Positions 4,530 to 51,099 of a stretch of 64,000 nt of DNA are shown here, piece after piece; position 1 is the stretch's first letter, and each line of letters begins with the position of its first letter. Below the pieces are notes generated by a model. That model was not told where the DNA came from. It did no database searches and saw only the letters and a list, made by a program, of their open reading frames with translations. The stretch comes from Nemertoderma westbladi (taxonomy: Eukaryota; Animalia; Xenacoelomorpha), in contig JAUCBJ010008926.1 in assembly GCA_032718475.1 (NCBI GenBank), positions 2,167 through 66,166 of the forward strand. Reading direction: 5' to 3'. The translations under genes were made by a program, and so were the position numbers.

Positions 4530-4552
4530 TTTCTTATTCTAGAAAAATAAAA

Positions 4553-11184: not shown

Positions 11185-11286
11185 ACTCCCCCTTTAGGCG
11201 ATTTTGTCAGATCAAAATTGTTTACAGTGAACCCCATACACCATATTATAGTTTAAAAATAATAAATGACTATTCTAGTGTAATAA

Positions 11287-15438: not shown

Positions 15439-15619
15439 CACGCAAATTAAATATGTTTTTTTAATGTATGAAATTTCAAATTATTAATTAGCAAGCAAAT
15501 AACGTCAGAACGTGCAGACGTGCAGTCGATCGATGATCGATCGGTGATATTGCAGTGCAGTTTATTGCGTAAGTTCAAGCGCAGCGCGGTACTGGTACTG
15601 CGCCTATCTCACTGCGCCA

Positions 15620-15805
15620 CGGTATGTCCGGCTGTCCGGTACATAGCCAGACAACTGTAGCCTGTAGGCTGAGGTAAAAGTGGATGCTGGAGCGACACAA
15701 CCGGTCCGTATAATATCAGCAGAATGCAAGTAAGATATGTAGGCCCGTGCCATAGACAGTAAGGGGGAATAATGAAATAGGCCTATACTGATTATATCCA
15801 TACCA
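15620..15805 (-). repeat. 5' LTR
   Basis: Matches 10999-11184; followed on the minus strand by the PBS; inner terminal base mutated (CG instead of CA). Confidence 0.95.
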
Positions 15806-17492: not shown

Positions 17493-18210
17493 TTGAGGGA
17501 GCCCAACGGCTCCTCACTCATTAGAACAGACTGCTTCTAGTGTTGGTCTTTTTGTTAACACCAAAAAGACCAAAATTGTGACAGTTGACTTAGAAAGTTC
17601 TCAGCAAATCTCTGATCGGATGAGCAAAAGCTCAAAGGATGGTACTATGCTTGATGCGGAAGTCAGGTGAGGACCTTCGAATACGTAAGAGAAAGGCATG
17701 GACAGCATTGAATGAAGAATTTGGAAGTCACTCAGAATTGATCGGAAACTTAAGGTCCGATTATTTAGAGCAGCAGTAGTACCAGTACTCCTCTATGGGA
17801 GTTCATGCTGGGCTCTAACTGCTGAGGACACCAAATCTCTGGATGCACATTCACAAGAATGCTACGTCGGGTTCACTGTGTCAAGTACAATGCACACATC
17901 TCCAACCAGAGACTATATAACATTGGAGGTGTCTCTATTGGTTCCCCCAAGCTTGACACTAGAACAAAGTCGCCTCCGCTTTGCAGGACATTGCTTTCGC
18001 CGTGAGGACCAGCCAGTCATAATCTTGTCTTTGGCAGCATCATGGAGAATAAGCATGGTGGACAGCCCATGACTTTAGTGAGACGCAACTTACAGGACAC
18101 CGACCTTGAAGATGCGGATAATCTCGCGAAAGTCATAGGGGATAGGGAGTTGTGGCGGTGCAACTTTGTTGATAAGCCGCCACAGCATTCCTAATGCACG
18201 CTGCATTGAG
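17493..18210 (+). mobile_element. Degraded 3' fragment of an RTE-like LINE
   Basis: Clearly homologous to the reverse complement of 23750-24510 (VPPSLTLEQSRLRFAGHCFRRED). Confidence 0.85.
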
Positions 18211-20959
18211 CTTGCCAATTGTGGATTGCATGGTGGTGACAAAATACTTATGTGCAGTTTCAATGCAGCAGGCCGATTACAGTAGTAGTAGACCCCCACC
18301 CTACTTCCACCTTAATATGCTCCGGCTAAACCAAAGGATAGGCCTATATTTCATTAGTTAAACGAATTAAAAAGTACCTTTTTTGGTAAAAACGAACCGC
18401 CCTTTTAACACGTCCAAACACGTGGCCCGGTAATGGAGAAGGCGCGCCTACCTACCCTAACATACACACACAGGCACCTTTCCTTGCCTCAATTTTTGCG
18501 GGCATTTGAAATAAAAATAAACAAAATATTAAATTTTCAGGAATATGTTTAAGTTTTTCTATTTTGGAACAGGAAATTTATATTTCAACAACCTGTTCTC
18601 ATGACCTACTATAGATACGACCCGCCAAGCTGCTTTAGTGGGCCAGTTATTTCTCTTAGTTAGAATTCCTGAAACAATACGTCTAGCGCGTCAATAGTAC
18701 TTGTCCGTAACTAAAATTATGTCCTCTTTCAGATGAGACAAATAAAAATTTAATAGCTCCAGTAGTTTTCGAGATAAGAGGAGTTCCTGGCACCCATCCC
18801 TTACCATATCAGCACTTTTCGGAATTGATAAAATTACTCAAAATACATCACTCTTCAATGACTTCGGTATAACCATTAAACCATATTATGAAATTAGAAT
18901 AAAATCTTCATTGTTTATTTTATAATAGACACTAAAAGAGCACCAAAATTACAAGTAGCTCGAAATTTTCAAATAGCCAGAAGTTGTAATTTGTCCTTAT
19001 AGTTTGGCTACTGAGATTTTAGAATGTGCTGATTTCATTGGCAAGGTTTATAAAATTGTGGTATTTTAAAAAATGGCCAAAAATTTAGTCGAAAATTGCC
19101 AGCCAGTGCACTTCTACTGTACTTCAGTACTGTAGAATTCTGGTACTGGTCCGGTAATAATGTAGTGATTATTCATTATGTGGTATGTGCATTGCGCTGC
19201 ACTACTGCGTTAGGCATTCCATTACTGATGACTGCATTATGTTGTTACGCATCAATGCCTTATTATTACATTACCTGACTTTACCTGACCTACCCATTAC
19301 CATTTTCTGACAATGCATCAAATCATTTTTGGTGCTATTTTGGCCCTCCAGCTTGTACGAAGCTACGAGCTACAGTACTTATTACTAGGGTAGCTACTTA
19401 TTTTTAAATAAACATAGGCCATAACGTCTTCAACGCATTTGCACAAAAATTGTTGTTTCTTCGATCCCCATTACCATGAAAATAAATGAAGCTGATGAAT
19501 AAAATAGTGATATCTGACAAAACCACATTTATTAACGTTAATGGTTTAGAGTTAATTGGTTAAAAGTTTGTTTAGTTAATTTTGTAACGTTAATTATTTA
19601 AATTAACATAGCGTGATAGTGAATTATCTCTGATTCATCACTAAATACAAAAGGGCATTGTCAACCTGACCATGACCATCCCGTAATTATGCATATGCAT
19701 TGTTATTTTAGGTTAAATTGTAATTGTTTTAAGTACTATTTTAAAACTTTCGTTTCTAGTCAGCATCATTGTATCATTATTAGGCCTAATGATCGTACTA
19801 GGCCTACTATAGGACAAATTGCTGAATCCAATTCTGTGACAATTCTATAAACGTAAGTTCGTTCGGATGATTCCCTATCAAGACTCACAGAGGAACGCAT
19901 CTAATTTTATTCTATCTGGCGCCATTTGTGGAGGAACGGAATAATGAGTATCACAGTGTTATTAGAACTGTATTTTAGATTACAATTGCAAACTGCACAA
20001 TGAGCCTAGTCATAATGAATTTATTATACCCCACACAGATTTAGCCCAACCAGCCTTTTAGAACCAACCTTTTTACAAAAAATTACTTACGAGCCCTTTG
20101 CTTCCTTCAAGAATAGAGAGAACATAAACAACAATATTCCTAATTTCACCCAACCCATGTTGGGAGTTGTTAGAATTGAGTTCTGCCGCCGGCATATCAA
20201 TAACTTTAATAAAATATTTCGTGAAATATTTTATTCTTATCCAAGGAAGTTTCTCTTTAGGGTTTCTAAATTTCCTAGCTTCTTTGGAGTGTCACAGATG
20301 CACAGATTTTCAAGAAGTAATTAATTATCTTGGTAACGTTAATGTTAAAAATCAAGTTCTGTAAAAGTGAATTTAGTAGATTTTCATGACGGGATGTTTA
20401 TTAATTTATTAAAATCTATGCAAGTGGTCTTAAAAACAAGATAGTGGTTCCCATGTCGTATCAGACTGCCTATATCTATGTCTACTGCCTATATCTATGT
20501 CTACTGCCTATATCTATGTCTACTGCCTATGTCTGCCTGTATGGATTATCATTAGCGATGGGCACAACTAACCTGCAGTCAATGGACAATGGGAGCAAGA
20601 ATCTAAGATCATGGCTAAGATCATGGCTAAGATCATGGCCTAATGAATGTGAGGATAAACATTGTGCCATCCCCTCAGTACAAACAACATTCGGCAGCTG
20701 CAGCTCTCGACGACATGGAGGTCTGCAATGGATCTAACCCATCCGCTCAGATGCATGTACCAGCAGGGCAGGTCACAATGAAGGTAGCACCCTTGATTTT
20801 CCATCACACGAGGTAAACAGAACATACAATGATTGGCTTCTCAACTACCTGGAACATCCCCGTAGAGAGGCTATTGGGCGTATATCTGAAATCAGCTCTG
20901 ACAATAGGATGGCGTATCGTGAAGTTCGTATCGTTAAAATTAAAATAAACAAATTAATT

Positions 20960-21649: not shown

Positions 21650-24600
21650 AAAGAAGCTAATTTTACTGAATCCTGCAGGAAAAAGAATCCTGCAATGACA
21701 CCTCAATGATAGATATGAAGAGGGAATTAAAATCAGCAATATCGGTAATCCAGACACGTATGTGCTCCGGATCGAACTACAGATCGAACTACAGAATGCT
21801 TCATTGAGGGAACAGGTTAATACACTAAGGGATGATGTTAACAACGAGCGCCTTAGTCGAATAGCCACGGCTGGGTCAACCCAAATGATTAGAAATACCA
21901 CCCCCAGCAGGTGTAAATAATACGTTCGAGGGTTCAATCAAATCAACACCCCACCCACCACCCATATCTGATGATGAAACGTAGAGTGACGACTATATCT
22001 GTATTAGCTCTATTAGTTCACCTGACTCTGACCACACACACAGTGGTCATGCATACAATTTATCACTGAGGAACAATAACCAAATAGCCAATACTCTAAA
22101 TAATCCACCAGTACCTGGGAGACATTCTCCAGAATACCATAAGTATAAGTACTGTTCTCCCATAAGAACGTATGGTGTCCCACCATAAGTACTGTTTAGT
22201 ACATTACTCAGCCTTGAGTGACACGGAAAATAGGGTGAGGAACAACAGACAACAATCAAGGCCATTCAGCAGTACCAATGGCATAATAACCTCTTCAAAT
22301 GGAACCAAAGAACAGATCCTAACAAGATTGAGACGTAATAAAATTCATCGAGTTAGTATCGATTACACAAAGGCAGAACAAACATACCGTGATCGATACG
22401 ATATAATTAATTCAATACAATTCAATATAAATTTAATCCTTCTTGTTGCACGCACCCAAACACCATAAACTGTGGTTATACAGTGTAAGTAATTACGAAA
22501 AAAGATGGTATGGTGTCAGGGAAGGGGAAATGTCAGGACACGGAGGCTAGCTAATAGCAGGGCTAATAGACGCTAGCCACCGGGGGGGGGGGGGGTGGTG
22601 GGGGGGGAGGGGGTGGGGGAGGAGGGGGGGGGGGGGGGTGAGGGAGGAGGGGGGGGGGGGGGGGGTGAGGGAGGGAGGTTACATCTGAATACTCATAATT
22701 TAGGATAGTTTTTATTAGTTTCGATTTTTATTAATTATATTTTTGAACCGTGGGACTAATCTTGTAAATAGTTACTTATTGTATGTCAATAACAAGTGAG
22801 GTAACGTGTGATGGTGATTAACGTGTGAAGGTGATTAATATCAAACGCGAGGAAAAAGTCAGCAGGACAAACAAAAAGGGGGACCCAAATATTGATGAGG
22901 ACAAATGCACCCGATGGCACACAGCCTCGACAACTCCCATGTTTGATTCCTGCAAGCACAAACCTAAAGACTACTCTCCTAGAAGCGGAAATAATTCTGG
23001 ACACTCGAGCTCTAAGTTGGAATGAAAATTTCCCGGAAGCCGAAAATTCACCCCAATATATATAACAGGAATACACAGAAAATATACTGAAGATCAAGTG
23101 CTCGAACATCTTAATATCAGAGGCATAGAGACTGGCCGCATAACCACACGAATAATTGGGAATTCACAGTGTATGAAGGTTACAATTGACTTCATGAATC
23201 TCCCACAAGTATTAGATGATAGATTCTGGCCTAAAGGGATCTCCTGCAGAGAGTGGATAAATTATAGTAATAATAACTGTTGATATGGTATACCTATCAG
23301 ACAGGGTACAAGAGTGTCGGGATATCACAATCGGGTTTGACGCAGAAAAAAAGAGGATGAATAACACAAGAGGAGTACGACAAGTGATAACAATGTTCTC
23401 ACCAACTCGACAGAATCTAGATTGTGTGGATTTGGTACATACAACTGTCATGGATTTCAGTCCAGTGCAGATTGTGTCTCGACCCTGCTAACTGAATGTC
23501 ATATACTTGGAATCAGGAGCACTGGCTCGACAACATTGGGTGTAAAGAGACTCTAAACGAGTTCCATAGTAACTTCTTCTGCGAATACATAACTAGCAAT
23601 TTAATGCTGAATGGGTGCCGCACATGCGGTGCAGGTGGTGTTGCATTATTATTTTCCAAGGATATCATCAATAACTAGTCATGGGTCGAATCAGGAGATG
23701 ACATGTCATATTAATATGACATTATTAATTGATGCCAGGCATGCTGCATTGCAGCTGCATTTTTAAGAATGCTGTGCCGGCTTGTCGACAAAATTGCGCC
23801 GCCACAACTCCCTATCACCCATGACATTTGCTAGATCATCCGCATCTTCAAGGCCTTTATGAGTCCTTTATGATGGGTCTCAAGAAAGTCATGGGCTGTC
23901 CACCATGCTTATTCACTCCATGAGGCGAGGCTGCCAAAGTACAAGATTATGCACTGGCTGGTCGTCACGGCGAAAGCAATGTCCTGCAAAGCGGAGGCGA
24001 TTTTGTTCTAGTGTTAAGCTTGGGGGAACCAATGAGACACCTCCAATGTTATATAGTGTCTGGTTGGAGATGTGTGCATTGTGCTTGACACAATGAACCC
24101 GGCGTAGCATTCTTGTGAATGTGCCATCCAGAGATTTGGTGTCCTCAGCAGTTAGAGCCCAGCATGGACACCCATAGAGGAGTACTGGAACTACTGCTGC
24201 TCTAAATAATCGGACCTTAAGTATCCGATTAATTCTCGGTGACTTCCAAATCCTGGAAAGCCTATTCAAGGCTGCCCATGCGTATTCCAAGATCCTCACC
24301 TGACTTCCGGATCCATGATCCCAGGTAACAGAAGTCGTCCACATGCTCAAGCATACCATCCTTTGAGCTTATGCTCATCCGATCAGAGACTTGCTGAGGA
24401 CTTTCAAAGTTAACTGTCAAAATTTTGGTCTTTCTGGAGTTAATAAAAAGACCAACACTAGAAGCAGCATGTTCTAATGAGCTGAGTAGCCGTTGGGCTC
24501 CCACTAGTGATTGTGAGAGTACTCCTAAGTCATCAGCAAAGTCTAGATCAGTTAGGTACTTGGCAGGATTTCCTCGACTTCTGGAGCCAGTAGGTGGAGT

Positions 24601-26540
24601 TATCATCACCCCATCATCATTATGATGATCTAAGGACATGCGTAGAACATAGTCAACCACAATTATGAATAAGAATGGTGCAAGCGTGTCTCCTTGGAGG
24701 ACGCAACATAACACTTCAAATGGTTCTGTGTCACCATCAACAGTAGACACAAATGTTGTAGAACCATCGTATACTGATCTGATTGCTGTAATAATTTCCC
24801 ATGGGAATCCCATATAATGAATGTATGGATCGACTTAATAGCATGGTAGAGGAGTACAGCAATGCTATCCCCATTATTCTAATGGACTCGAATGCAGATC
24901 TCGGTCCACTACAAGGTAACAGTCACTGTCGGACTTTTTCTTCTCCCCGTGGTTTCACTTTTAATAATTTTCTAAACAGAACTGACCTCACCGCCGTTGA
25001 TACATACCAATTTGTTGAAGGACCCTGCTACTCTTTCTATCGCAACACTTGTGGCATCTCTTTTATTGATCATATCTTATGTACCCAGGAGATATCGGAT
25101 ATGTGCATCCGAAGAGAAGTCTTCAAGCCTAATCCTGTGAGCAATTTCTCAGATCACGTCCCAATTATTGTTCAGTTGGAAATTCCATTTCCTCTTATCC
25201 AAACAACTATTCCCGTGGTAGGTGAGCATGACATTTCAATATATTATAATACGTAATACGTTATTATTCTATAACACAAATTTTCCTGAAGTTCAACGAT
25301 TTAATAATGGGAACCTCCATAAAAATTAGCTACGGACTTAAACAAGGTAGTTTATTATCTCCAAGTTTATTTAACATATACATAACAGACATATTTGAGT
25401 CTCTCGAAAGCGACGGAATTGGGTGCAGTATTGGTGATTTGTGGGTAGGATGTCTTAATTACGCAGATGACCTTCTACTACTTGCCACATCCCTGAAAGA
25501 CTTTGAAACAGTGGCACAGATCATCAACACCAAGACCAAAGAACTCAAATTGAGAGTTCCAAATCAAAGTGGATATACTCCGGCAGTCCTAGTGTCTCCC
25601 CCATGCTCCTTAATATTGGAGAAAACTTGATCCAGCGATCTGAACAAATTGAATTTCTCGGTTTTACATTACAATGTGGCAAGCTGGATGCCCTTAACTG
25701 TCGAAGCAATCACTTGTTATATTAAGCGAAACTTTCCATAGACATGGCTGGACAACTAGATATCTATACTGTGATACATTAGGACATCTATGGAATACAA
25801 TAGCTGTGCCCGCTGCCCTACAGTATATAACCTTCAATTCCTAATAGGTGCATTAAATATGACGCAGCTCCATGAACTGGATGGTTTCTATCTTAAACTA
25901 CAGCGCGGTCTGTGCTGCCCTGGTTCATATGTCCCCGGACCATCTATATATAGAATAATGAATTGCCAACCTATCTCAATTGACGAGTTCCGTGCGAATA
26001 TCGGTACTCTAATACGTATATCAAATTGTCCGAACATACCCTCTAAACATCCTTACGTCGACTAGTGTTCGCTAACAACGGCTCCTACAGATACCAAGGA
26101 TTGGTGAGCGGTTTTAGACTCGCTCGAATATCATAACCACTCCCACAACTAAACTCTATTCCCATGTACACATACTCAAAACAGAATTTACTGTCCCGTG
26201 TCACAATTGCCAGTCCATCATTAAGTGACATCCTTAACGCAGACTTCGTGACAAACTTTTTAAAAACGGGCAACATCACATTTGTGACAAATCGGCGACT
26301 GATACTGGACCATTTTAACATAATATAAGATGATTTTAGTGATACTGGAGCTTTTTAATCTAAATTGTGATAGTTTTACTTTGAGTGTATTGTACCTTGA
26401 CCTTCCATGATAATTTATATGGCTTTGTATATAATCTGTATTTATTTTTATTGTTTGATTCGTCGATGTGTCAATATTTAGTTAATTAAGTTTGTTTCAG
26501 CCCCATCGTGCACCTTTTACAATGCTAATATAAAATAAAT
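21650..26540 (+). mobile_element. Degenerate L2/CR1-superfamily LINE (ORF1, APE endonuclease, RT), interrupted by an RTE-like LINE
   Basis: ORF1-type FWPKGISCREW (~23225); APE motifs GGVALLF, IILMDSNA, SFIDHIL, SDHVPI; RT motifs GLKQGSLLSPSLFNIY and YADDLLL. Boundaries approximate. Confidence 0.8.
23700..24813 (-). mobile_element. 5'-truncated RTE-like LINE inserted antisense into the older LINE
   Basis: VLQGDTLAPFLFIIVVDY, LTDLDFADD, FCYLGS, RLFRAAVVPVLLYG, RLRFAGHC; splits the APE domain of the host LINE. Confidence 0.88.
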
Positions 26541-27990: not shown

Positions 27991-28409
27991 TGTGTAATTG
28001 TTTTTTTTTCTTTGTCTTTTTCTTAGGTTTCATATTTAGTATATACCTTGAAATGGGAAAATATGTCGTTACAACAAAAAGTGCAGTAAGACCAGTAAGT
28101 ACAGTAAGACCAGCTCATTCAAATGTTTGAAACTTGACCAAAATTGACTGTACAGCTACATAGATTGGTTTTAAAGTGCGCAGTAGGCGTTGTTGGTTTG
28201 GGAAAGTGTTGATTATATAATTTAAAATAAATTAAGAAGTGTATTTAATATTTTGTTACATTATGTCAACTTAACAGCGTTCTGGTGAATTACTCGGAAC
28301 GCTGCAAAGTACTACTTTGCAGAGTTGCGGCCTATAGGACGGAACGCTGCAAAGTAATAAATGATATGGAAACAACTTCAATCACCGTATTCCAGAACAT
28401 ATATTAAGA

Positions 28410-29684
28410 ACACGAAGTGGGGCCTTCGCGCAGCACGTGACTTAAATTTAATTTAAGTACTAATTCGAAAGTATTACTGTATTAGCAAATTTTAAGCAGA
28501 TTTCGCCTAATCACTTTTTACCTCTTTCATTTCTATTCAGACATTTCTGACTCTAGCGGTATAGTGAGAACTGAAGATGGATTAGGGTCTCCAGCCCCAC
28601 AAAGACACAGCCTATGGATGAATAGTACATACGTACATCGGCCAAGTTTCATCTTGAATAACGGATAACGAAATGAGAGACGGATCTCACTTTCAGAAAT
28701 TTCGTCGTATAGCGGCAGACCGATTAAATCTCCCCCCCCCCCCCCCCCCCCCCCACAAAGACGCAGCATGTGGTCCAGAATATATGGCAAGATTCAGCTT
28801 AAACTGATTAAAATCAATGAGACGGGAGAATCTATTCACTTTCAGGCATAAAGTAGTCCTATAGCGGGTGACTGTTGAACTGATTTTCAACAAAACAAAT
28901 TTTCAACTTGGCAGCTTTAAATTCGACAAAGTTATAAGCATGTCAATATCATAACGACGACAACGATTTCACTTTCAGACATTTGGCCCTCTAGCGGCAG
29001 ACTGGAGAACTGCAGATGGATTCGCCTCCTTTGAAAGTCACAGCTAATGGTCTAATACATATCTGCCAAGTTTCAGCTTAAACGGATTAAAAGCAAAGAA
29101 ATGGGAGGGCATTTAATGTTTAGACATGTGGCCCTCTAGCGGGAGACCATTGCACTGATGGTGTCTGAAAGTCTCTCAAAAATCTCAACTTTAGCTCATA
29201 TTGATACCTACAAATTTTCAACTTGGCAGCTTTAAATCCGACAAAGTTATTAGCATGTCAAAATCGTAACGACGACAACGATTTCACTTTCAGACCTTTG
29301 GCCCTCTAGCGGCAGACTGGAGAACTGCAGATGGATTCGCCTCCTTTGAAAGTCACAGCTAATGGTCTAATACAAATCTGCCAAGTTTCAGCTTAAACGG
29401 ATTAAAAGCAAAGAAATGGGAGGGCATTTAATGTTTAGACATGTGGCCCTCTAGCGGGAGACCATTGCACTGATGGTGTCTGAAAGTCTCTCAAAAATCT
29501 CAACTTTTGCTCATATTGATACCTACAAATTTTCAACTTGGCAGCTTTAAATCCGACAAAGTTATTAGCATGTCAAAATCGTAACGACGACGACGACGAC
29601 GACGACAACTATTTGCATAAATTGACCCACCCCCTAACAGTGTCAATTCGCTAAGGCTCCGCCAACTTCGTGGCTCGCCCCACA
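28410..29684 (+). mobile_element. Non-autonomous Helentron/HINE-like element, copy A (two 315-bp internal units, (GAC)n microsatellite)
   Basis: ACACGAAGTGGGGCCTTCGCG...CGCTAAGGCTCCGCCAACTTCGTGGCTCGCCCCACA; asymmetric subterminal inverted repeats; internal period 315 bp (28904/29219/29534). Superfamily assignment is inference. Confidence 0.8.
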
Positions 29685-29815: not shown

Positions 29816-30808
29816 ACACGAAGTGGGGCCTTCGCGCAGCACGTGACTTAAATTTAATTTAAGTACTAATTCGAAAGTATTACTGTATTAGCAAATTTTA
29901 AGCAGATTTCGCCTAATCACTTTTTACCTCTTTCATTTCTATTCAGACATTTCTGACTCTAGCGGTATAGTGAGAACTGAAGATGGATTAGGGTCTCCAG
30001 CCCCACAAAGACACAGCCTATGGATGAATAGTACATACGTACATCGGCCAAGTTTCATCTTGAATAACGGATAACGAAATGAGAGACGGATCTCACTTTC
30101 AGAAATTTCGTCGTATAGCGGCAGACCGATTAAATCTCCCCCCCCCCCCCCCCCCCCACATAGACGCAGCATGTGGTCCAGAATATATGGCAAGATTCAG
30201 CTTAAACTGATTAAAATCAATGAGACGGGAGAATCTATTCACTTTCAGGCATAAAGTAGTCCTATAGCGGGTGACTGTTGAACTGATTTTCAACAAAACA
30301 AATTTTCAACTTGGCAGCTTTAAATTCGACAAAGTTATAAGCATGTCAATATCATAACGACGACAACAATTTCACTTTCAGACATTTGGCCCTCTAGCGG
30401 CAGACTGGAGAACTGCAGATGGATTCGCCTCCTTTGAAAGTCACAGCTAATGGTCTAATACATATCTGCCAAGTTTCAGCTTAAACGGATTAAAAGCAAA
30501 GAAATGGGAGGGCATTTAATGTTTAGACATGTGGCCCTCTAGCGGGAGACCATTGCACTGATGGTGTCTGAAAGTCTCTCAAAAATCTCAACTTTTGCTC
30601 ATATTGATACCTACAAATTTTCAACTTGGCAGCTTTAAATCCGACAAAGTTATTAGCATGTCAAAATCGTAACGACGACGACGACGACGACGACAACGAC
30701 GACGACGACAACGACGACGACGACGACGACAACTATTTGCATAAATTGACCGACCCCCTAACAGTGTCAATTCGCTAAGGCTCCGCCAACTTCGTGGCTC
30801 GCCCCACA
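29816..30808 (+). mobile_element. Same non-autonomous element, copy B (one 315-bp unit)
   Basis: Near-identical to copy A, with one unit fewer and a longer (GAC)n tract. Confidence 0.8.
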
Positions 30809-31144
30809 CTAAAATGACTATAGAAAATGGCGACAGTGTTCAGTAAAACTGAACTATTATTTTCAAGAAAAATTACGCGGTTCCTAAATTTGTACACTAC
30901 CCGGTTAAAAAGTACGCATGTGATGGGATTAGTCCTACAATTGCGCCAATAAAAGATAAGTTATTTTCGGTAAAATAAACTTATCATTCGAGGTTAAGAC
31001 CCCTAGATCCCTTCTTATAATAAAATGTATAATAACAAACACCTCGAAAAATACAGCTTGCCAACACATTGTTACTATCAATAATCAAAAATCAGGGGCT
31101 AATAAAATGGCAGCTGTCTTTGAAATTAATACTCCATATCTCAA

Positions 31145-31207
31145 GAACCTGTGGCCTAGTGGTTGTAGTCTCGGCTTCCGCCTCGAGGTCCCAGGTTCGA
31201 ATCCGAC
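31145..31207 (+). promoter_or_regulatory. tRNA-derived internal Pol III promoter (repeated at +412, +824, +1236)
   Basis: A box TGGCCTAGTGG 31152-31162; B box GGTTCGAATCC 31194-31204; CT-TCC-GC loop suggests tRNA-Gly(TCC) ancestry; acceptor stem absent. Confidence 0.85.
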
Positions 31208-31250
31208 ACCACGCTGATGAGACCCAGTAAGGTCGAAACGCGTACGTGGT
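31208..31250 (+). ncRNA. Type I hammerhead ribozyme, copy 1
   Basis: ACCACG-CTGATGA-GACC-CAGTAA-GGTC-GAAA-CGCG-TA-CGTGGT: stem I, intact core, stem II, minimal palindromic stem III; predicted cleavage after GUA at 31244. Confidence 0.95.
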
Positions 31251-31619
31251 TTGGAGAGATATGAGATATTAATTTCAAGAAAAATTACGCGATTCCTAAA
31301 TTTGTACACTACCCGGTTAAAAAGTACGCATGTGATGGGATTAGTCCTACAATTGCGCCAATAAAAGATAAGTTATTTTCGGTAAAATAAACTTATCATT
31401 CGAGGTTAAGACCCCTAGATCCCTTCTTATAATAAAATGTATAATAACAAACACCTCGAAAAATACAGCTTGCCAACACATTGTTACTATCAATAATCAA
31501 AAATCAGGGGCTAATAAAATGGCAGCTGTCTTTGAAATTAATACTCCATATCTCAAGAACCTGTGGCCTAGTGGTTGTAGTCTCGGCTTCCGCCTCGAGG
31601 TCCCAGGTTCGAATCCGAC

Positions 31620-31662
31620 ACCACGCTGATGAGACCCAGTAAGGTCGAAACGCGTACGTGGT
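31620..31662 (+). ncRNA. Type I hammerhead ribozyme, copy 2
   Basis: Identical to copy 1. Confidence 0.95.
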
Positions 31663-32031
31663 TTGGAGAGATATGAGATATTAATTTCAAGAAAAATTAC
31701 GCGATTCCTAAATTTGTACACTACCCGGTTAAAAAGTACGCATGTGATGGGATTAGTCCTACAATTGCGCCAATAAAAGATAAGTTATTTTCGGTAAAAT
31801 AAACTTATCATTCGAGGTTAAGACCCCTAGATCCCTTCTTATAATAAAATGTATAATAACAAACACCTCGAAAAATACAGCTTGCCAACACATTGTTACT
31901 ATCAATAATCAAAAATCAGGGGCTAATAAAATGGCAGCTGTCTTTGAAATTAATACTCCATATCTCAAGAACCTGTGGCCTAGTGGTTGTAGTCTCGGCT
32001 TCCGCCTCGAGGTCCCAGGTTCGAATCCGAC

Positions 32032-32074
32032 ACCACGCTGATGAGACCCAGTAAGGTCGAAACGCGTACGTGGT
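32032..32074 (+). ncRNA. Type I hammerhead ribozyme, copy 3
   Basis: Identical to copy 1. Confidence 0.95.
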
Positions 32075-32443
32075 TTGGAGAGATATGAGATATTAATTTC
32101 AAGAAAAATTACGCGATTCCTAAATTTGTACACTACCCGGTTAAAAAGTACGCATGTGATGGGATTAGTCCTACAATTGCGCCAATAAAAGATAAGTTAT
32201 TTTCGGTAAAATAAACTTATCATTCGAGGTTAAGACCCCTAGATCCCTTCTTATAATAAAATGTATAATAACAAACACCTCGAAAAATACAGCTTGCCAA
32301 CACATTGTTACTATCAATAATCAAAAATCAGGGGCTAATAAAATGGCAGCTGTCTTTGAAATTAATACTCCATATCTCAAGAACCTGTGGCCTAGTGGTT
32401 GTAGTCTCGGCTTCCGCCTCGAGGTCCCAGGTTCGAATCCGAC

Positions 32444-32486
32444 ACCACGCTGATGAGACCCAGTAAGGTCGAAACGCGTACGTGGT
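32444..32486 (+). ncRNA. Type I hammerhead ribozyme, copy 4
   Basis: Identical to copy 1. Confidence 0.95.
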
Positions 32487-34425
32487 TTGGAGAGATATGA
32501 GATATTAATTTCAAGAAAAATTACGCGATTCCTAAATTTGTACACTACCCGGTTAAAAAGTACGCATGTGATGGGATTAGTCCTACAATTGCGCCAATAA
32601 AAGATAAGTTATTTTCGGTAAAATAAACTTATCATTCGAGGTTAAGACCCCTAGATCCCTTCTTATAATAAAATTCAGTAAAACTGAACGGACACAGACG
32701 GTGACTAAGTTTGCGTCAGTCGACTATAGTCAAGATGCATTAATGAATTATCACATTCAAGCAGGAGATAACTTCCAATAAACTTTAATTAGATTTAAAT
32801 GTATAATTAATACTGTGTACCTGTTAATAAATTTCACTTATATTCGATATAGTACATGATTAAAATGTTTAAATGAGCATCCATAAAATCCTTTCTTCAC
32901 AAACCGAATGCTGATAAGTTGACATAATGTAACAAAATTAAATACATCATTGCTTGCAAAGGTCAAAATACCCTTGTTTATTTATATCAACCTCCCTCGC
33001 TGCGCTCGCTAGGTACATAAATAAAAACTCGTGTCATAACGCTGCAAAAGTGCTACTTTGCACACAATGATGTAAATAGTTATTGTTTACTTTAGATAAA
33101 GTGCAATTAACAAGTATTATTTTGAAAACGTAACATTCGTATATCATTAATTATTGCTCTACACAATATTCATATTCGGTGAAGTTGATACTAATAGTAA
33201 ACCAGTCAACTGCCAAGTGGAAGAAACTAGTTGAAAATTACTAATATTATTAATATTATTATATTATTAAAATTATAGAAATTTATAACCTGGGCTTGGC
33301 CTATTTATTAAGAATTCGTATTATTAAAATTCTTAATAGTTCAGAAATTTATTCGGAAATTAAATCGCAGCAAATTTTGCGGGAGACCATATTACTCTAT
33401 AACCATAAGTCTCGCTGTGAAGGACATGTTGTAAAAGTAATTATTTATTACTTGGAAAAAAAAGTAGAACCTTTTGTCACTATTATCGATATATTTCAAG
33501 GCTGGTTTACACGTGACAACTTTTGGAGCTACTTTCTCAGCCTCTTAGTGCGCACCTCAAGTTGCCGATCAAGTTTCTCCGTGCAAACACGAAGTTGCTG
33601 TAAAAAAAACTTGCCACGTTTTCTTTGCGAACAAGCTAAGTTGTTCAAAATTAAGTTTCTGAACAAGTTGCCCAAAACGTTGCCACGTGTGAACCGGCCT
33701 TGATAGATAGTATTTTAGTAACAAAGCATTTTAATAAACATTTAAAATTTGCCATAACTTTTGAGTATATTGATTGAATTTTACTCAAATCACGTGCCAA
33801 CCTTTTTTAATTCAATGCACTTGCAACACACAAAAATATTTCATATTTTATTATATTACTTTTTTCGCCCGGAAAAAAGTTAAATCAATGCAATCCTATG
33901 GGTTACTGATTTTCCTTATGGAAAAAAGTACCAATTTGAGGGTTCAGTATATTCGGGCGAAAAGTAACAATTTAAGAAAAAAACACATTGTTCAATACTA
34001 TCAACCATTAATTCCTATTTAATATAAAATACTGCACTATTTACACAACTGATAGTGTCATTAAATACAAAAATGTAGTTAAAAAAAATATCTGTTGTGC
34101 TTCAGATATTATTAAAACTGTATGTATATACTGTAAATTTCTAGTACATAATATGCGTTTAAACAAGGAAATTAAATATTTGTAAACGTTTCTTAGGGTT
34201 TTCCAAATGCCATAGATGGCGTTATAACTTTTGTTGGGCACAGCTTTGCCAAGTAGGCAATGACGTCCCGTCCAGGTGGGATCGTTCTGGTGACCTACGG
34301 TTTGGAAGTCTGACGCTCTAACCATTCAACTAGCAGTTCAGGTAAAATTAGACTTGGAAAACCACCTGATACCGTGTATGTACCCACGCAATTTACCTCC
34401 TCATGGCATCCCATCGGTCAATTGG

Positions 34426-35272
34426 CATGCCCATGCCGCCCATGCCCATACTCATTCCCATGCCGCCCATGCCCATACTCATTCCCATGCCGCCCATGCC
34501 CATACTCATTCCCATGCCGCCCATGCCCATACTCATTCCCATGCCGCCCATGCCCATACTCATTCCCATGCCGCCCATGCCCATACTCATTCCCATGTCG
34601 CCCATGCCCATACTCATTCCCATGCCGCCCATGCCCATACTCATTCCCATGCCGCCCATGCCCATACTCATTCCCATGCCGCCCATGCCCATACTCATTC
34701 CCATGCCGCCCATGCCCATACTCATGCCCATGCCGCCCATGCCCATACTCATGCCCATGCCGCCCATGCCCATACTCATGCCCATGCCGCCCATGCCCAT
34801 ACTCATTCCCATGCCGCCCATGCCCATACTCATTCCCATGCCGCCCATGCCCATACTCATGCCCATGCCGCCCATGCCCATACTCATGCCCATGCCGCCC
34901 ATGCCCATACTCATGCCCATGCCGCCCATGCCCATACTCATGCCCATGCCGCCCATGCCCATACTCATTCCCATGCCGCCCATGCCCATACTCATTCCCA
35001 TGCCGCCCATGCCCATACTCATTCCCATGCCGCCCATGCCCATACTCATTCCCATGCCGCCCATGCCCATACTCATTCCCATGCCGCCCATGCCCATACT
35101 CATTCCCATGCCGCCCATGCCCATACTCATTCCCATGCCGCCCATGCCCATACTCATTCCCATGCCGCCCATGCCCATACTCATTCCCATGCCGCCCATG
35201 CCCATACTCATTCCCATGCCGCCCATGCCCATACTCATTCCCATGCCGCCCATGCCCATACTCATTCCCATG
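34426..35272. repeat. 27-bp minisatellite (CATGCCGCCCATGCCCATACTCAT[T/G]CC), ~31 copies
   Basis: Direct reading; T/G variants occur in blocks. Confidence 0.97.
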
Positions 35273-37263: not shown

Positions 37264-37337
37264 GGCCCCAATAGCTCAGTTGGCAGAGCGTGGGACTTGG
37301 AATCTCTAGGTACCGAATTCAATCCCCTATTCCGGTG
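37264..37337 (+). pseudogene. tRNA-derived pseudogene/SINE head
   Basis: TAGCTCAGTTGGCAGAGCG A-box/D-arm, degenerate B box (GAATTCAATCCC), followed by a T run; stems do not close into a functional tRNA. Confidence 0.6.
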
Positions 37338-38410: not shown

Positions 38411-39160
38411 AATAATAACTATTTACATCATTGTTTGTAAAGTAGCACTTTGTAGCACTTTGCAGTTATGACCGAGTTTATTTATGTACCGAGCGAGCGC
38501 AGCGAGGGTGGTTTACATCAATAAACAAGGGTCTTTAACGCTAAAAGGTGACCTTTGCAAGCAATGATGGATGTAATTTTGTTACATTATCTAAACTTAT
38601 CAGCGTTCGGTATGTGAAGAAAGGATTTTATGGATACTCATTTATACATTTTAATCATGTACTATATCGAATATAAGTGAAATTTATTAACAGGTACAAA
38701 GTATTAATTATACATTTATATCTAATTAAAGTTTATTGGAAGTTATCTCCTATATGGATGTGATAATCATTAATCCATCTTGACTATAGTCGACTGAAGC
38801 AAACGTAGTCACCGTCTGTGTCCGTACAGTTTTACTGAACACTGTCGTCACTTTCTTTGGTCATTTTCTCTAAGTGTCTTCTATTGGACGTTTCGCCACA
38901 ATGGATTACAGTACACGTTAAACAATTATTTACATACATTAGCTAGTCCCGTCACTGCAAACTGGATAATAAAGCAGCACTCATTAACATAAATGGAAAT
39001 AATACATTCTGGAATACGGTAATTGAAGTTGTTTCCATGTCATTGATTACTTTGCAGCGTTCCGTCCTATAGGCCGCAACGCTGCAAAGTAGTACAGTAC
39101 TTTGCAGCGTTATGAGTAATTCACCAGAACGCTGTTAAGTTGACATAATGTAACAAAATA
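38411..39160. mobile_element. Uninterrupted copy of the ~750-bp host repeat (carries the empty insertion sites)
   Basis: Reverse complement of the joined segments at 28250-33083; contains a single GT(A)CAGTTTTACTGAA site at ~38824-38839. Confidence 0.85.
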
Positions 39161-39281
39161 TATATTTATTATATTGTATATGAATTATCCAATAATTCAT
39201 ATAATGAATGTAAAAATAACAATTCAAATAATATTGCAGCCATTAGCTTAATTTATAATGTAAATGAATTTTCACAACGGT

Positions 39282-40262: not shown

Positions 40263-41587
40263 GTAAGTGATATTAATAGCGATAAAATCATAGAATTATC
40301 TATGTATTATTTCATATAAAATTTAATATTATCTGATTTAGTTGTTATGAGTATAGTGTATATTATTGTGATTTGTTTTTATGATTATTTGTTTTTATTT
40401 GTTTTTGTGTTTTGATATTGTTATAAAATCAATCAATAAATTCTGTCCATAACTATCCAATTTGGTACACTCCACTTTGTTACATTTTATCTGAATATAC
40501 TTTTTAAAAAGCAAATTTTTGAATTCTTTTTGGAAATATACTTGAACTTGTTAGAGTTTATCTATTTCAATTAAAATGATATTCTATAGATTAATTATTT
40601 TTTGTAAATATGGGAGCCAATATGTATTATATTATATTATCACGTGTTATTAATTATCTTACCGACTTTACGAGTAAATTCTGTGCGGTTGGACAGCTTG
40701 CGGTGCTAAATTATTTATAATAGTGTGTTGTCAATAAATATCTATCTATATTCTATCTATTGAGTTCGGGTTTGGGTTACGGTTAGGATTAGGGTTAGGT
40801 TTGCTAATATAAAAAAATAAATTGAAAAATATGTGAAAAATAGTTTAATTTAATTTAGCTAACATAATATGAACTACAGTAAACCAGTTTCAAAAATAAT
40901 TATACTGAATATTACGTGTATATATAACGTAGAACATTTTTTATATTCTCGAGGCATTTTATTTACCGAGCGCCAGCGCGGGTAATAAACAGGTCGATCG
41001 GGAAATAACAAAACGAGGGCCCTAAAAGCTTTAAAGTGCTTTATGAACAATGGCGAATCTAATATTATTTATTTGTGTGGAAGAATTTGTCATTATCCAT
41101 ATATTATTTAAATATTCTAGAACATCCTTTTAACTTGAAAGCACGACTGACATTTTAATTATAAATACTTTCTTATCATGCGAAGTTAGCGTAGTGGGTA
41201 ACACGTTTGGTTATGAATATAATGGTCTTAGGTTCGATTCTTAGTAAATCAATTTTTGTAAGTTTTAGAATTGTAAAATATTTATAGTGTGTAGGCCTAT
41301 TGCCTATTCAGATGAAGTCATGTGATTATATTTAGAATGACGCGGTGACATACTGGAAATATATAGTAAATGAATGGCGTAGGAGAGGGGGATACTGATA
41401 AATATCTCGCACTGCGATATAAAGTCGATTATACTAATGGGGATTCGTTAGTGCGAAGTTAATTCCAAACAAATAAATAAAAATGTTCTACATCACCTTT
41501 TTTTCCCTAGTAATACGTAATTTTGTTCTTAAATTGGTACATTTTTGTTGCTCAATTATTTAATAAAGGATAGAACGATATAGTGTT

Positions 41588-43094: not shown

Positions 43095-43173
43095 TGTGGG
43101 GCGAGCCACGAAGTTGGCGGAGCCTTAGCGAATTGACACTGTTAGGGGGTGGGTCAATTTATGCAAATAGTTG

Positions 43174-43205
<32 letters not shown>

Positions 43206-44389
43206 GTCGTCGTCGTTACGATTTTGACATGCTAATAACTTTGTCGGATTTAAAGCTGCCAAGTTGAAAATTTGTAGGTATCAATATGAGCAAAAGTTGA
43301 GATTTTTGAGAGACTTTCAGACACCATCAGTGCAATGGTCTCCCGCTAGAGGGCCACATGTCTAAACATTAAATGCCCTCCCATTTCTTTGCTTTTAATC
43401 CGTTTAAGCTGAAACTTGGCAGATATGTATTAGACCATTAGCTGTGACTTTCAAAGGAGGCGAATCCATCTGCAGTTCTCCAGTCTGCCGCTAGAGGGCC
43501 AAAGGTCTGAAAGTGAAATCGTTGTCGTCGTTACGATTTTGACATGCTAATAACTTTGTCGGATTTAAAGCTGCCAAGTTGAAAATTTGTAGGTATCAAT
43601 ATGAGCTAAAGTTGAGATTTTTGAGAGACTTTCAGACACCATCAGTGCAATGGTCTCCCGCTAGAGGGCCACATGTCTAAACATTAAATGCCCTCCCATT
43701 TCTTTGCTTTTAATCCGTTTAAGCTGAAACTTGGCAGATATGTATTAGACCATTAGCTGTGACTTTCAAAGGAGGCGAATCCATCTGCAGTTCTCCAGTC
43801 TGCCGCTAGAGGGCCAAATGTCTGAAAGTGAAATCGTTGTCGTCGTTACGATTTTGACATGCTTATAACTTTGTCGAATTTAAAGCTGCCAAGTTGAAAA
43901 TTTGTTTTGTTGAAAATCAGTTCAACAGTCACCCGCTATAGGACTACTTTATGCCTGAAAGTGAATAGATTCTCCCGTCTCATTGATTTTAATCAGTTTA
44001 AGCTGAATCTTGCCATATATTCTGGACCACATGCTGCGTCTTTGTGGGGGGGGGGGGGGGGGGGGGGAGATTTAATCGGTCTGCCGCTATACGACGAAAT
44101 TTCTGAAAGTGAGATCCGTCTCTCATTTCGTTATCCGTTATTCAAGATGAAACTTGGCCGATGTACGTATGTACTATTCATCCATAGGCTGTGTCTTTGT
44201 GGGGCTGGAGACCCTAATCCATCTTCCGTTCTCACTATACCGCTAGAGTCAGAAATGTCTGAATAGAAATGAAAGAGGTAAAAAGTGATTAGGCGAAATC
44301 TGCTTAAAATTTGCTAATACAGTAATACTTTCGAATTAGTACTTAAATTAAATTTAAGTCACGTGCTGCGCGAAGGCCCCACTTCGTGT
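43095..44389 (-). mobile_element. HINE-like element, copy C (two 315-bp units), in SAXO intron 1
   Basis: Near-identical reverse complement of copy A. Confidence 0.8.
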
Positions 44390-44445
44390 TTAACTATATT
44401 TTATTATTAATACTATTTAATGACGTGACATTTGTTGCCTTCTAG

Positions 44446-46570: not shown

Positions 46571-46666
46571 AGGCATTTTATAGACCCACCCGCACCCGCT
46601 CTATCCGATTATGAGTTACATAATATTTCCAATTTCGAATGAAATATGGAAATAAAGTAAAATTAC

Positions 46667-47716
46667 CTTACTGGCGTAGCTCGCTGGTTTATCGATGTCG
46701 GAGACCCCGGTTCCGATCCGTTCCGATCGCCCGGGTCCGACTCCGATTCGAGCCGTCGGTTCCCGGACGCCGTACGGCGGGTCGGCGATCACCGCGTCGA
46801 ACATCCCCGCGAGGGGCGCCCTCACACCGAGCCGAGCCACGTCGGCGACGACGAGATCGAGCAACCGCCCCTCGATCCCGTAGTCCCGCATACACGTGGC
46901 GAGTCGCTCGTCCGGGGGCCTGCGACGCGGCGCGCCGCTCCGGGTCGCCGCTAGAGGCGCGCCGTGGACGGCGTTGTACGAGAGATCGGCACCGCAGACC
47001 GCGGCGCCCCAATGCGCGGCCGGGATCAGCAACCCGCCGGTTCCGACGAACGGATCGAATACCAACCGCGAGGAGTCGGCGAGTCCGAGGTTCGAAGCGA
47101 TAAACCCTAGTTCCGGGTCCATCGACGTCGTCCCGATGAAACTACGAGTTTTCAGAGAGTAACGAGTTAGCAACGAGCGTCGACAACTCTCCCCTAGCAA
47201 CCGACCGAAGAAAACTCGTTTAGATCGCCCACTAGCGGCTACAGGGTGATACTCGATCCATACGAACCGAGTTGTTGCATTGTTTAAATCCACAGATCCC
47301 TCTAGAGGAAGGAATATAAGAAGCGATTCAACAGTCTTTAGTTTCTCTTCCGCTGTCAATCGTTTGCCCACGGCGAAAACGTCTATAGCGAAACTGGAAG
47401 CCTCGTGGTACAATCTAAGGAAGTTTTCGTTATTAAGGGTTTCTCGTATTTTATTTAGAACTTCGTTATTCGAACTTCCTTCAGCTATTATCTCGTAGGC
47501 GTGTTTCAATAGAATTGTTCTAGATAGAATTAACTGAATATTTTTAATCCATTTTTCTCGTCCGGTGCATGTCAACATCAAGAAGGGGCATTTATCGTCT
47601 TCTTTATCCCTGGATATCTCAACGGGTGAATTTAAGTTGAATAATTTAAGTATCGATTCCAGTTCGCTAATGTAAAAGTCGCAGTGGTTCCCGCAGTAAT
47701 GAAGTAACGCTTTCAT
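46667..47716 (-). CDS. TRMT11: tRNA m2G10 methyltransferase TRMT11 exon 1
   Basis: YSLKTRSFIGTTSMD, VFDPFVGTGGLL (SAM binding), FDAVIADPPYGVRE; donor AAG|GTAATT at 46666. Start taken at MKALL (47716); an upstream in-frame ATG exists at 47839. Confidence 0.92.
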
Positions 47717-49509
47717 ACTTCGGTTTGAGTTGATACCGGTATTCCTTGTGACCCCGCTCGCGGTTTTTCCTACTATTTGGCTAATATTACGGGAGTGGAA
47801 TAATGGGATAAAATGGCGTAAGAAGACTACGTTCCACATCTAATTATTGATATTATTCCTTTACTTTATTAAAATTAAATATACATGAATAGGCTCTCCG
47901 GCATGTAATGTGGAACTTCACTATTATTTGAAAATCCCGCTAATTACTAATATATGAAAACTAAAGCTGATTGGCCTGGAGTGTAGCAGCCCTTGTGTTT
48001 CCATGTGAAAACATTTAAGGGCATTAAAATATAGTTCACATCCGCAATGGAAGGTTTCTTATATCTGGTCACTAAGTTTAAATTAAATTAAATAATTTGC
48101 TGTAATTATAAGGAAATAATAATTAAATAACCTACGTAAACATAGAGGTAGGCATAAATAACTGAGCATTTTTGAAGGATCTCGGATAAACAGTAAAAAA
48201 TTAATAATCTTTCAGTTTTGATGAATATTATATACCACCTTAAATAATTTAGGTGGCCAATCAGTTAAGTAAGACATCATTAACTTTTTGAGTTTTATTA
48301 AATAACCACTTTAGTGAAATAATATTTCCAAAGATACACCAAATTACAAATTTACGATGATGTATGTGACACTGCTCCTTCATATTATCAAACATAATAT
48401 TTGGAATAACCCAAATATTATTTAAATTGTCAAAACAATAAAATTTAAATTGTGAAAAAATTTCATCGCGATTTGTGAATACCCCCCAGGAAACTGATTG
48501 TATTTCTCAAAAAATACAATCTTAACACACAAAATCAATATTTCACCCAAATTTGACATATCCATCAAGGTGTTGTTCGTGATATTGACGTTACAAACAT
48601 TGAGCGGTTGAACCACAGGGACAGCTGTACTGAGGGGCTAGGTGCATATGTATATGGACTAGGAATTAGGGTATGTACATTATTTACAATGTAGATAATG
48701 TTATTATGTTTCAACCCTACCGCATGGGCTAATGGGGACAATAACCTCCAAACCAAACACAAACCACCAGCGCACCAGGTTGGATTCTTGTACGGACTGT
48801 ATAGTAGCTCAGCAACACGTTTCAACTCCTTGATTGAAATGAAGCAGCGAAACCCTCAATAAAGTCAAATTCAAAATAGCCAACTTCTTTAACCCCCTAG
48901 ATGCGTTCGGCTAATAAAATATTGCTCTGGATGCAAATTTGGTAAAAAATGTTGAGGTGACCCAATGCGCCCAAATCAACCACTGCCTTTCGAATAGCCG
49001 ATACGGGATACTATTGAGTGAGTACAGCCGCTCTTCTTGTGCATCTTAAGAACTAATAACTCCACTCCTATTTTTGATGTTGTCTACCCCCAATAAAACG
49101 AAGTTTGCGAATCTGAGGCGGTCTGTAGCCTACGATTTACAAAAGTATAATAATGTAGAATGGCTTCGTTGTACAAATATGACTGCGATCGATATGGGTG
49201 AACATGTTAGTCAGTAACTGGCAGTGAGTGGTTAACTACAATATTGTTTTCCAAAATTTCACACATCTAGGGTGAAAGAGGATAAATATATGAACTTGAA
49301 ATTTTTAGGGCCACCCTATTTACAAGATATACCCACCCATCTAGACTCACATCTCACACTGGTTGTTTAAAATTAGGAACCAAGTTTACTGGGAAACAGA
49401 ATGGAGGTGTGTACTGTGGAAGATCAAAGATCACCCACGGTGGTGAACATGCGAATGAGTCTAAGATTATCCTAAGCAAACATTATTAGTGCTTAAACTT
49501 ATTACATAG

Positions 49510-50799: not shown

Positions 50800-51099
50800 C
50801 TACTCGAATTTTCCTAGAATGTCACCATCTCGGAAAATAAAATATTCTTCATTTTTAATCTCTATTTTGGTTCCTCCGTACTCCGGGAGTAGCACGTTGT
50901 CCCCGGGTTTCACACTGCAGGGTATCACAGTGTCCGATTGGTGACTCCGGGACCCCGGCCCGGTAGCTACAACCTCAGCTTCCAGCACTTTCCCCTGCGC
51001 TTTATCCGGAATCAGAATTCCGCCTTTTGATTTTGTCTCCGGGTTGAATCGTCGGACCAGAACTCGATCGAACAGAGGTTTTATCATTCTTCCAGACAT
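50800..51099 (-). CDS. HSPE1: 10-kDa chaperonin (HSP10/GroES family), intronless
   Basis: IKPLFDRVLV, ETKSKGGILIP, VVATGPG, VKPGDNVLLPEYGGTKI, FRDGDILGK. Confidence 0.97.
   Translation of the reverse strand: MSGRMIKPLFDRVLVRRFNPETKSKGGILIPDKAQGKVLEAEVVATGPGSRSHQSDTVIPCSVKPGDNVLLPEYGGTKIEIKNEEYFIFRDGDILGKFE

Follow-up and report, generated by a model that had tools for sequence, protein, structure and literature searches.

A candidate tRNA-headed hammerhead retrozyme inserted as a 4.4-unit array in Nemertoderma westbladi

A stretch of 64,000 nucleotides from Nemertoderma westbladi (GenBank assembly GCA_032718475.1, contig JAUCBJ010008926.1, positions 2,167 to 66,166 of the forward strand; hereafter the window, in whose own numbering all positions are given) contains a tandem array of 412-bp units in which tRNA-like promoter boxes directly precede a hammerhead ribozyme motif. 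The locus raises the question of what transcribed, processed and copied such a repeat, and how it came to be inserted as a multimer. Our reading, to which we assign a probability of about 0.62, is that the array is a young retrozyme flanked by a target-site duplication (TSD); its head likely drives transcription by RNA polymerase III (Pol III), and its RNA is predicted to be cut, likely circularised and likely copied into the genome by a Penelope-type reverse transcriptase (RT). The array, the boxes, the hammerhead sequence, the TSD, an empty site and an abundant family are the directly observed parts of this reading.

Tandem Repeats Finder placed the array at 30855-32674 with a period of 412 and 4.4 copies, and comparison of the units bore out the tandem 412-bp organization of 30855..32673 described in the original prediction, which had been made from the letters alone. 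No base differs among units 2-4 and the 172-bp partial unit that closes the array, and unit 1 deviates at 30860 and 30880 only, both within its first 26 bases. The unit contains 161 G or C among its 412 bases (<50%), shows no long terminal repeat (LTR) structure and is non-coding, its two reading frames of 85 and 95 codons having no Pfam match. BLAST of the unit against the rest of the window, fragments of long interspersed elements (LINEs) included, gave no noteworthy match. Because a 16-bp TSD flanks the array and an empty paralogous site is present in the window (Table 1), the 4.4 units are proven to sit in one insertion. Both TSD copies are perfect, and the insertion is young. The second copy of the host repeat, on the minus strand at 38411-38867, is 88% alike over 433 nt of the right flank. 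The insertion starts 290 nt before the first tRNA head, within the long stem discussed below, and ends mid-unit in an A-rich stretch without a tail. The target does not pair with this A-rich end, microhomology being limited to 1 nt at the 3' junction. The retrozyme identity, the tRNA-derived head and re-insertion as multimers, as originally proposed, hold, and the TSD and junction pattern lend support that the earlier note lacked. The target site itself (30838-30854) is a 6-bp inverted repeat around a five-base loop.

Table 1. Features of the array, its target site and the analogue contig L006 (window positions unless a contig is named)
Feature	Position	Strand	Remarks
Insertion, 4.4 tandem 412-bp units	30855..32673	+	No added tail; 5' start 23 nt past cut-site register
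TSD (16 bp), left copy	30839..30854	.	Same as 32674-32689; two copies in whole window
TSD (16 bp), right copy	32674..32689	.	First base also fits element (1-nt microhomology)
Empty paralogous site	38824..38839	-	Host repeat with TSD sequence once, 15/16 bases, both flanks joined
tRNA-derived head	31145..31207	+	Pol III start predicted near 31145; no cloverleaf left; leader 31145-31151 paired with 31192-31198
A box	31152..31162, also 31564, 31976, 32388	+	
B box	31194..31204, also 31606, 32018, 32430	+	First half pairs with leader, last three bases in extended hammerhead stem I
Canonical type I hammerhead, copy 1	31208..31250	+	Predicted cut between 31244 and 31245
Hammerhead, copy 2	31620..31662	+	
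Hammerhead, copy 3	32032..32074	+	
Hammerhead, copy 4	32444..32486	+	
Predicted 412-nt monomer between two cut sites	31245..31656, also 31657-32068, 32069-32480	+	
Upstream strand of long monomer-closing stem	31119..31142, repeated +412, +824, +1236	+	Pairs with 31256-31279
TTTT, possible Pol III terminator	31376..31379	+	Within hairpin stem
Putative RT start region 1	31436..31446	+	Recurrent 3' junction of family copies; mostly unpaired
Putative RT start region 2	31494..31504	+	Second recurrent 3' junction; A/C-rich loop, unpaired
L006 head-hammerhead region	L006:760-945	-	Metagenome contig

The hammerhead in each unit has its stems, core and GAAA in place together with a GUA cleavage site, in agreement with the original description of an intact type I motif. 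In copy 1, stem I is formed by 31208-31213 and 31245-31250 (6 bp) and encloses the seven-base core (31214-31220), stem II (31221-31224/31231-31234, 4 bp with a six-base loop), GAAA (31235-31238) and helix III, a 6-nt palindrome at 31238-31243, with the predicted cut after A31244. The search with Rfam Hammerhead_1 (RF00163) that had been suggested as a check returned a full-length match (E 3.7e-5), although its 26.0 bits did not reach the gathering score of 34; the HH9 model scored 26.6 bits against a gathering score of 52. The helix III palindrome is predicted to pair with itself at -7.5 kcal/mol. Canonical metazoan type I hammerheads, which have a helix I of 6 bp, a helix II of 4 bp and a short palindromic helix III, are reported to be able to act as dimers (Cervera and de la Pena 2014). 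Judged by its sequence, the window hammerhead has this canonical architecture and not the minimal one of Penelope-like elements (PLEs), so that the minimal class, given in the original note for metazoan non-LTR retrozymes, does not apply by the published definition. A U occupies position 1.7 (31251), unpaired or weakly paired, and the terminal A of loop 2 is 31230; these two residues would be compatible with the tertiary contact reported for the Schistosoma hammerhead. Self-cleavage of array RNA is likely.

An A box and a B box were found in every full unit, as originally claimed, whilst a base-composition model expects 1.9e-5 chance A-B box pairs per window. Such boxes by themselves are not unusual in a genome of this kind, because two further decayed tRNA-like sequences with A and B boxes lie in the window (37272, within 37265-37335; 41187, within 41180-41245). 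tRNAs share 20 invariant and semi-invariant positions, and with 31145 as position 1 the head has 19/20 of them in place. Its stems have mostly gone, with 3/5 pairs remaining in the anticodon stem, 2/5 in the T stem, 1/4 in the D stem and 1/7 in the acceptor stem. ARAGORN reported zero tRNAs in the window and Rfam no tRNA match in 31135-31215; the lost stems and these blank results rule out a functional tRNA gene. By its sequence the head is a dead tRNA that has kept its A box and the exact tRNA box spacing, and it is predicted to fold into a rod that pairs the seven-base leader with the beginning of the B box. The anticodon loop reads TCC in the window and TTC in a diverged relative (X7, below); the parent may have been a Glu/Asp/Gly-type tRNA. 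Hammerhead stem I stands in place of the acceptor stem, bearing out the view that the ribozyme has replaced the tRNA 3' acceptor strand. The related claim that the B box runs straight into stem I was right as to adjacency, but the box also overlaps the extended stem I by its last three bases.

The predicted monomer folds at -108.6 kcal/mol (z -4.44), and 0/100 shuffles were as good. About 35 bp of stem join its two ends, which stem I is predicted to bring together, and pair probabilities are near 1 for most of the long stem. The active ribozyme fold lies 5.6 kcal/mol above the predicted minimum of the circle. The prediction is therefore of a stable, self-paired monomer whose ribozyme is free to fold. 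Since part of the long stem is formed by sequence that precedes the predicted start, the folded unit would be the full monomer and not the short RNA from start to TTTT. The only runs of four or more T in the repeating unit are 31376-31379 and its equivalents (the edge change in unit 1 adds one at 30860), and the original argument that this TTTT must be read through to make full monomers stands. The long stem mostly uses 31119-31142 and the putative RT start regions lie past TTTT; therefore the folded and the copied RNA would both have passed it. On this model, the passage must have come about either by Pol III read-through or by a transcript from another polymerase.

The unit is present in five public runs from three studies, two of the deep runs being from one sample, from which the window itself may also stem. 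Contigs matching one unit numbered 3379 in run X1, 1301 in X3 and 1808 in X2. The family is abundant, large and varied, probably with thousands of copies; summed contig depth reached 3e5-8e5 against ~20-60 for single-locus contigs, a figure that is not a copy number. By summed depth, the family majority in X1 differs from the window at 31117 (93%), 31180 (93%), 31427 (89%) and 31086 (70%), and the same four positions differ in X3 (66-100%). All units of the array thus carry the same alleles, each a minority variant within the family, which argues that they came from one template or locus.

Recurrent 3' junctions of family copies were read from loose contig ends, using the best-supported 15 of 429 and 18 of 220 rows. 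Among these, loose ends behind 31436 occurred in 21, 23 and 13 contigs of X1, X3 and X2, and loose ends behind 31496-31504 in 19, 28 and 28, with rows also in X5 and X6; none of the rows fell at the cut site. The 3' end of the window insertion coincides with the first region (32673 = 31437 + 3x412). Junction flanks are mixed (agreement 0.40-0.49). Both regions are internal to the monomer: they follow the cut site by about 190 and 250 nt, lie downstream of TTTT and, in the predicted circle, consist mostly of unpaired, A/C-rich sequence. Joints between opposite strands were also seen among family copies. Several old copies cover about 31280-31436, a span between the first start region and the base of the long stem, at which an RT could be expected to stall. 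Run X4, which is RNA only by guess and carries another organism label, contained a single 441-nt contig whose ends overlap so as to close a 411-nt unit (depth 13.8); a DNA tandem array gives the same, and assembled contigs cannot tell an RNA circle from a tandem array. Extra depth over 31455-31496 in X5 and X6 is read as no more than short or shared copies. A joint between 31277 and 31394 was seen in X2 and X5, where a 1831-nt X5 contig of depth 401 consists of head and hammerhead, a middle part and then the 3' part of the unit; it may be a longer family member or possibly a partner element.

Two sequences from elsewhere bear on which parts of the unit are kept. Three contigs of a sediment metagenome (X7) represent a diverged relative that retains the B box and hammerhead, with 1 difference in 80 nt over this region compared with 9/31 changed positions between the boxes. 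The B box shows 0 changes and the A box is changed at 3 positions across two records. Read by eye, the change at 31128 is offset by a partner change in the loose-end consensus (A-U to C-G), and that at 31147 leaves the leader/B-box pair as G-U. A pattern scan for a B box plus hammerhead core gave 1 match in viral contigs, 6 in metagenome contigs and 3 in prokaryote genomes, 9 of them distinct (L001 = L002), none of which matched the window unit. On folding, 8/9 were rejected, being either protein-coding or a genuine tRNA with a hairpin after it, and L006 alone forms a hammerhead. This contig has an A box with an intact D arm, a B box and a hammerhead whose helix III is palindromic and whose cleavage site is GUA (23.7 bits with HH9, E 0.0043); its leader again pairs with the B box in a rod (z -4.07). 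A 127-base terminal repeat implies a tandem or circular unit of 1341 bp, whose sense strand is free of T4 runs over all 1341 nt (base shuffles, P 0.024; dinucleotide shuffles, P 0.45). BLAST of L006 against the window unit found no match, and from its sequence we take it as a true analogue, unrelated in sequence, with the same A box-B box-hammerhead layout. L006 also carries internal 164- and 57-bp repeats and telomere-like words.

In the mechanism that we propose, Pol III would start near 31145 in a unit and sometimes read through the single TTTT into the next, a step with slightly better than even odds. Cutting at 31244 and 31656 would very probably free the 412-nt monomer, its ends held together by the long stem. 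A host RtcB-type ligase would quite probably close the circle, by analogy with coral, mussel and axolotl retrozymes, for which cutting, RtcB-type ligation and accumulation of circles are described (PMC7229834). A PLE endonuclease/RT would then be likely to nick DNA and start cDNA in the RNA at either A/C-rich loop without target homology. A purified PLE protein (PAc Poseidon) is reported to behave in this way, starting reverse transcription within the RNA, at two positions of an AC-rich loop and independently of target homology (Frangieh 2024, PMC11167929), and variable TSDs, 5' truncation and tandem and inverted copies are described as PLE traits. The two junction clusters and the 1-nt microhomology fit mobilisation by a PLE, but the putative start regions are spaced more widely than 30-40 bp. 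The RT may finally have rounded one circle 4.4 times and halted inside the long stem; 4.4 uniform units with four intact ribozymes would arise because it rolled around one circle.

Several observations weigh against this account. The hammerhead scores fall under the Rfam gathering thresholds of both models, in a monomer helix III comprises no more than 2 bp, and for Xenopus only 1/9 predicted retrozyme dimers is reported to have cut (10.64898/2026.07.22.740005). A conserved TTTT precedes both putative RT start regions. T-runs are not significantly depleted in the unit (1 observed vs 1.5 expected), so that sequence alone cannot choose between Pol III read-through and another polymerase. RNA pairing would by itself suffice to account for the conservation of the B box. 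Within the head hairpin, the inner part is not conserved: of nine within-species variants, 1 keeps its pair, 4 are unpaired and 4 break a pair. Among 18 changes in X7, 5 keep a pair, 3 are unpaired and 10 break a pair if the partner is unchanged, five of these 10 having partners at or past the end of the aligned part. The junction pattern rests on the best 15 of 429 and 18 of 220 loose-end rows, both hot spots coincide with common one-base indels (31086, 31434) able to end alignments, and the start regions are ~55-60 nt apart as against a PLE tail of 30-40 bp. Penelope-type elements that lack a hammerhead are reported to make head-to-tail multimeric insertions as well, and uncut RNA is reported as the main PAc template (PMC11167929); because of these two points we place the rolling-circle step near even odds. 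An autonomous partner element was not found. That the window holds no Penelope-like RT, as first noted, was confirmed by a Pfam scan of 101 of 126 open reading frames (ORFs) of at least 75 aa and by a six-frame regular-expression search for PLE RT/GIY-YIG motifs; the 25 ORFs left out of the Pfam scan were alternative frames in a Gypsy element, array copies, a TRMT11-like gene and a simple repeat.

How far these points favour other explanations depends on the step concerned. The same retrozyme might carry its A and B boxes as relics, with host read-through (Pol II or other) as the source of RNA and the B-box sequence kept as part of two RNA stems, a possibility that we doubt but take seriously. 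It would agree with a review in which retrozymes appear promoterless (PMC7761336), with the TTTT upstream of both RT start regions, with the altered A-box positions in the two X7 records, and with the B-box bases that pair with the leader and build the extended stem I. Against it, the A box and exact tRNA spacing survive though the cloverleaf is dead; the same box-then-hammerhead order is found in Sm-alpha of Schistosoma, which is reported to be Pol III transcribed, and in L006 with its T4-free sense strand (P 0.024 base, 0.45 dinucleotide shuffles). Pol III transcription from the head stays our preferred reading. Similarly, the multimer need not have come from a circle: an RT could have copied an uncut linear multimer of a homogeneous source array or jumped between templates, or a short insertion could later have been expanded by unequal crossing-over. 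The multimeric insertions of hammerhead-lacking elements speak for such an origin, which we nevertheless consider unlikely, since the 172-bp partial unit at the opposite edge from unit 1 shows no differences, both TSD copies are perfect, a 1.8-kb linear template must keep four hammerheads uncut, and animal retrozyme RNA is described as mostly circular in the species tested (PMC7229834).

Greater departures from the retrozyme reading fare less well. A tRNA-derived short interspersed element (SINE) moved by an ordinary LINE (RTE, CR1 or L2 type), with an incidental hammerhead, would account for the tRNA head, the TSD and the A-rich 3' end, and LINE RT fragments do occur in the window (24265-24834 and 25250-25627). 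We judge it improbable, as the insertion does not start at the head, has no tail and belongs to a family with 3' ends at two internal sites, the target is unpaired with the A-rich end and the unit has no notable BLAST match to the LINE fragments. A passive satellite or assembly artefact with an accidental hammerhead-like motif is largely refuted and very improbable indeed. Consensus polishing can yield perfectly identical units, and the Rfam scores are below threshold; polishing could alter the identity or number of units and not the element itself, and the TSD with its empty paralog, the intact core, conservation in the relative X7 and thousands of matching contigs in independent DNA runs (3379, 1301, 1808) all speak against it.

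The remainder of the window is rich in other repeats. Three non-coding repeat copies (28396-29684, 29816-30808 and 43095-44402) are 96-99% alike and enclose tandemly arranged 315-bp units as well as an ACG microsatellite. Two of these three copies and the retrozyme landed in one small host repeat, of which an intact paralog lies at 38411-39161, and an X5 contig joins the second junction site of the retrozyme to the end of the 315-bp-unit repeat. A Gypsy-type LTR retrotransposon at 11000-15806 has 186-bp direct repeats (97.8% alike), a gag-like frame and a 1062-aa pol frame with RT, RNase H and integrase matches. Broken frames of a protein-primed DNA polymerase B (PF03175) and their neighbours at 4023-7951 resemble a Polinton-like remnant, a cluster of short repeats with B-box-like words occupies 3240-3960, and LINE-type fragments with RT, endonuclease and DUF6451 matches lie at 17412-18216 and 23738-25627. 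A 27-bp minisatellite at 34426-35272 (31.4 copies, 99% alike) is open in several frames. Long uninterrupted frames correspond to a TRMT11-like methyltransferase (46616-47839), Cpn10 (50803-51102) and a 329-aa frame without Pfam match (55682-56671). The TRMT11-like ORF had 6 matches at 32-38% identity among 7992 scored, and the Cpn10 search no match at E 1e-35. By these sequences the host seems to belong to a divergent animal lineage, one that evolves fast or has been poorly sampled.

Hammerhead retroposons of Schistosoma, Sm-alpha and Sj-alpha, reportedly go back to work by Ferbeyre in 1998 and Laha in 2000. Sm-alpha is described as a tRNA-derived Pol III-type promoter followed by a type I hammerhead, in tandem and at very high copy number (PMC6765202, PMC2770079, PMC8490949), whilst animal retrozymes in general are seemingly without a promoter according to a 2020 review (PMC7761336), and PLEs have been proposed as the enzymes that move them. 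The window element has every sequence-level trait examined of a non-LTR retrozyme, with the layout of the Sm-alpha type, and probably represents a new family of known design, set apart from Sm-alpha by comparison with published descriptions. The original suggestion of a likely undescribed family can be kept for the family and not for the kind, since the design is already described in Schistosoma. In mainly open-access literature, at the level of titles and abstract openings, we found no description of tRNA-headed hammerhead repeats outside schistosomes; further invertebrate retrozymes shown in the supplement of PMC7229834 may bear on novelty. With its compact unit, intact boxes, one weak terminator, very young TSD-bounded multimer and known empty site, the family offers a clean test of retrozyme transcription and of the mobilising enzyme, and its two candidate RT start regions, now mapped, resemble those of the single PLE that has been examined in vitro. 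Tentatively, tRNA-headed hammerhead retrozymes might form a class that has arisen repeatedly and independently, the 'SINEs' of Penelope-like elements, in which the B box of a refolded tRNA relic doubles as Pol III promoter and RNA stem. If so, Sm-alpha would be the first-found case, the window family, its X7 relative and L006 would be further origins, and the multi-copy 1831-nt contig may be a partner.

Set beside tRNA-derived SINEs (SINE2), the unit shares A and B boxes at tRNA spacing and a decayed cloverleaf, but its head is internal, the unit is circularly permuted and tandem, and there is no LINE-like tail. A classical tRNA SINE was rejected, as the insertion neither begins at the head nor ends in an A-rich or simple-repeat tail. 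With PLEs (PAc Poseidon; non-autonomous Chlamys elements, Craig 2021, 10.1101/2021.04.23.441226) the family would share two internal A/C-rich-loop starts, no target homology, variable TSDs and tandem and inverted copies. It differs in having no ORF, a canonical and not minimal hammerhead, and putative start sites that are separated by 55-60 nt and lie 190-250 nt away from the cut. Vertebrate retrozymes are likewise reported to be tied to the pseudo-LTRs (pLTRs) of PLEs, from which those of Xenopus are said to derive (Li, Clavereau and Pollet 2026, 10.64898/2026.07.22.740005). Metazoan non-LTR retrozymes are described as 150-450-bp tandem units with a canonical type I hammerhead each (Cervera and de la Pena 2020, PMC7229834), and the window family resembles them in unit size, canonical hammerhead, GC <50%, lack of an ORF, TSD >4 bp and a predicted self-paired monomer with unblocked ribozyme; in contrast to their promoterless description (PMC7761336), it has a tRNA head. 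The comparison with Schistosoma Sm-alpha drawn in the original prediction is the closest and holds: both are abundant and have a tRNA-derived A/B-box head directly upstream of a type I hammerhead, in tandem, and because cleavage would place the promoter 3'-terminally in the monomer, tandem copies are needed. They differ in unit length (412 bp vs about 335 bp) and in animal host; the window head scores as no tRNA and has a TCC anticodon loop whereas Sm-alpha copies are called tRNA-Gln-TTG, and the window family shows a TSD-bounded 4.4-mer with PLE-like ends. The family suggests that the schistosome design was not a one-off.

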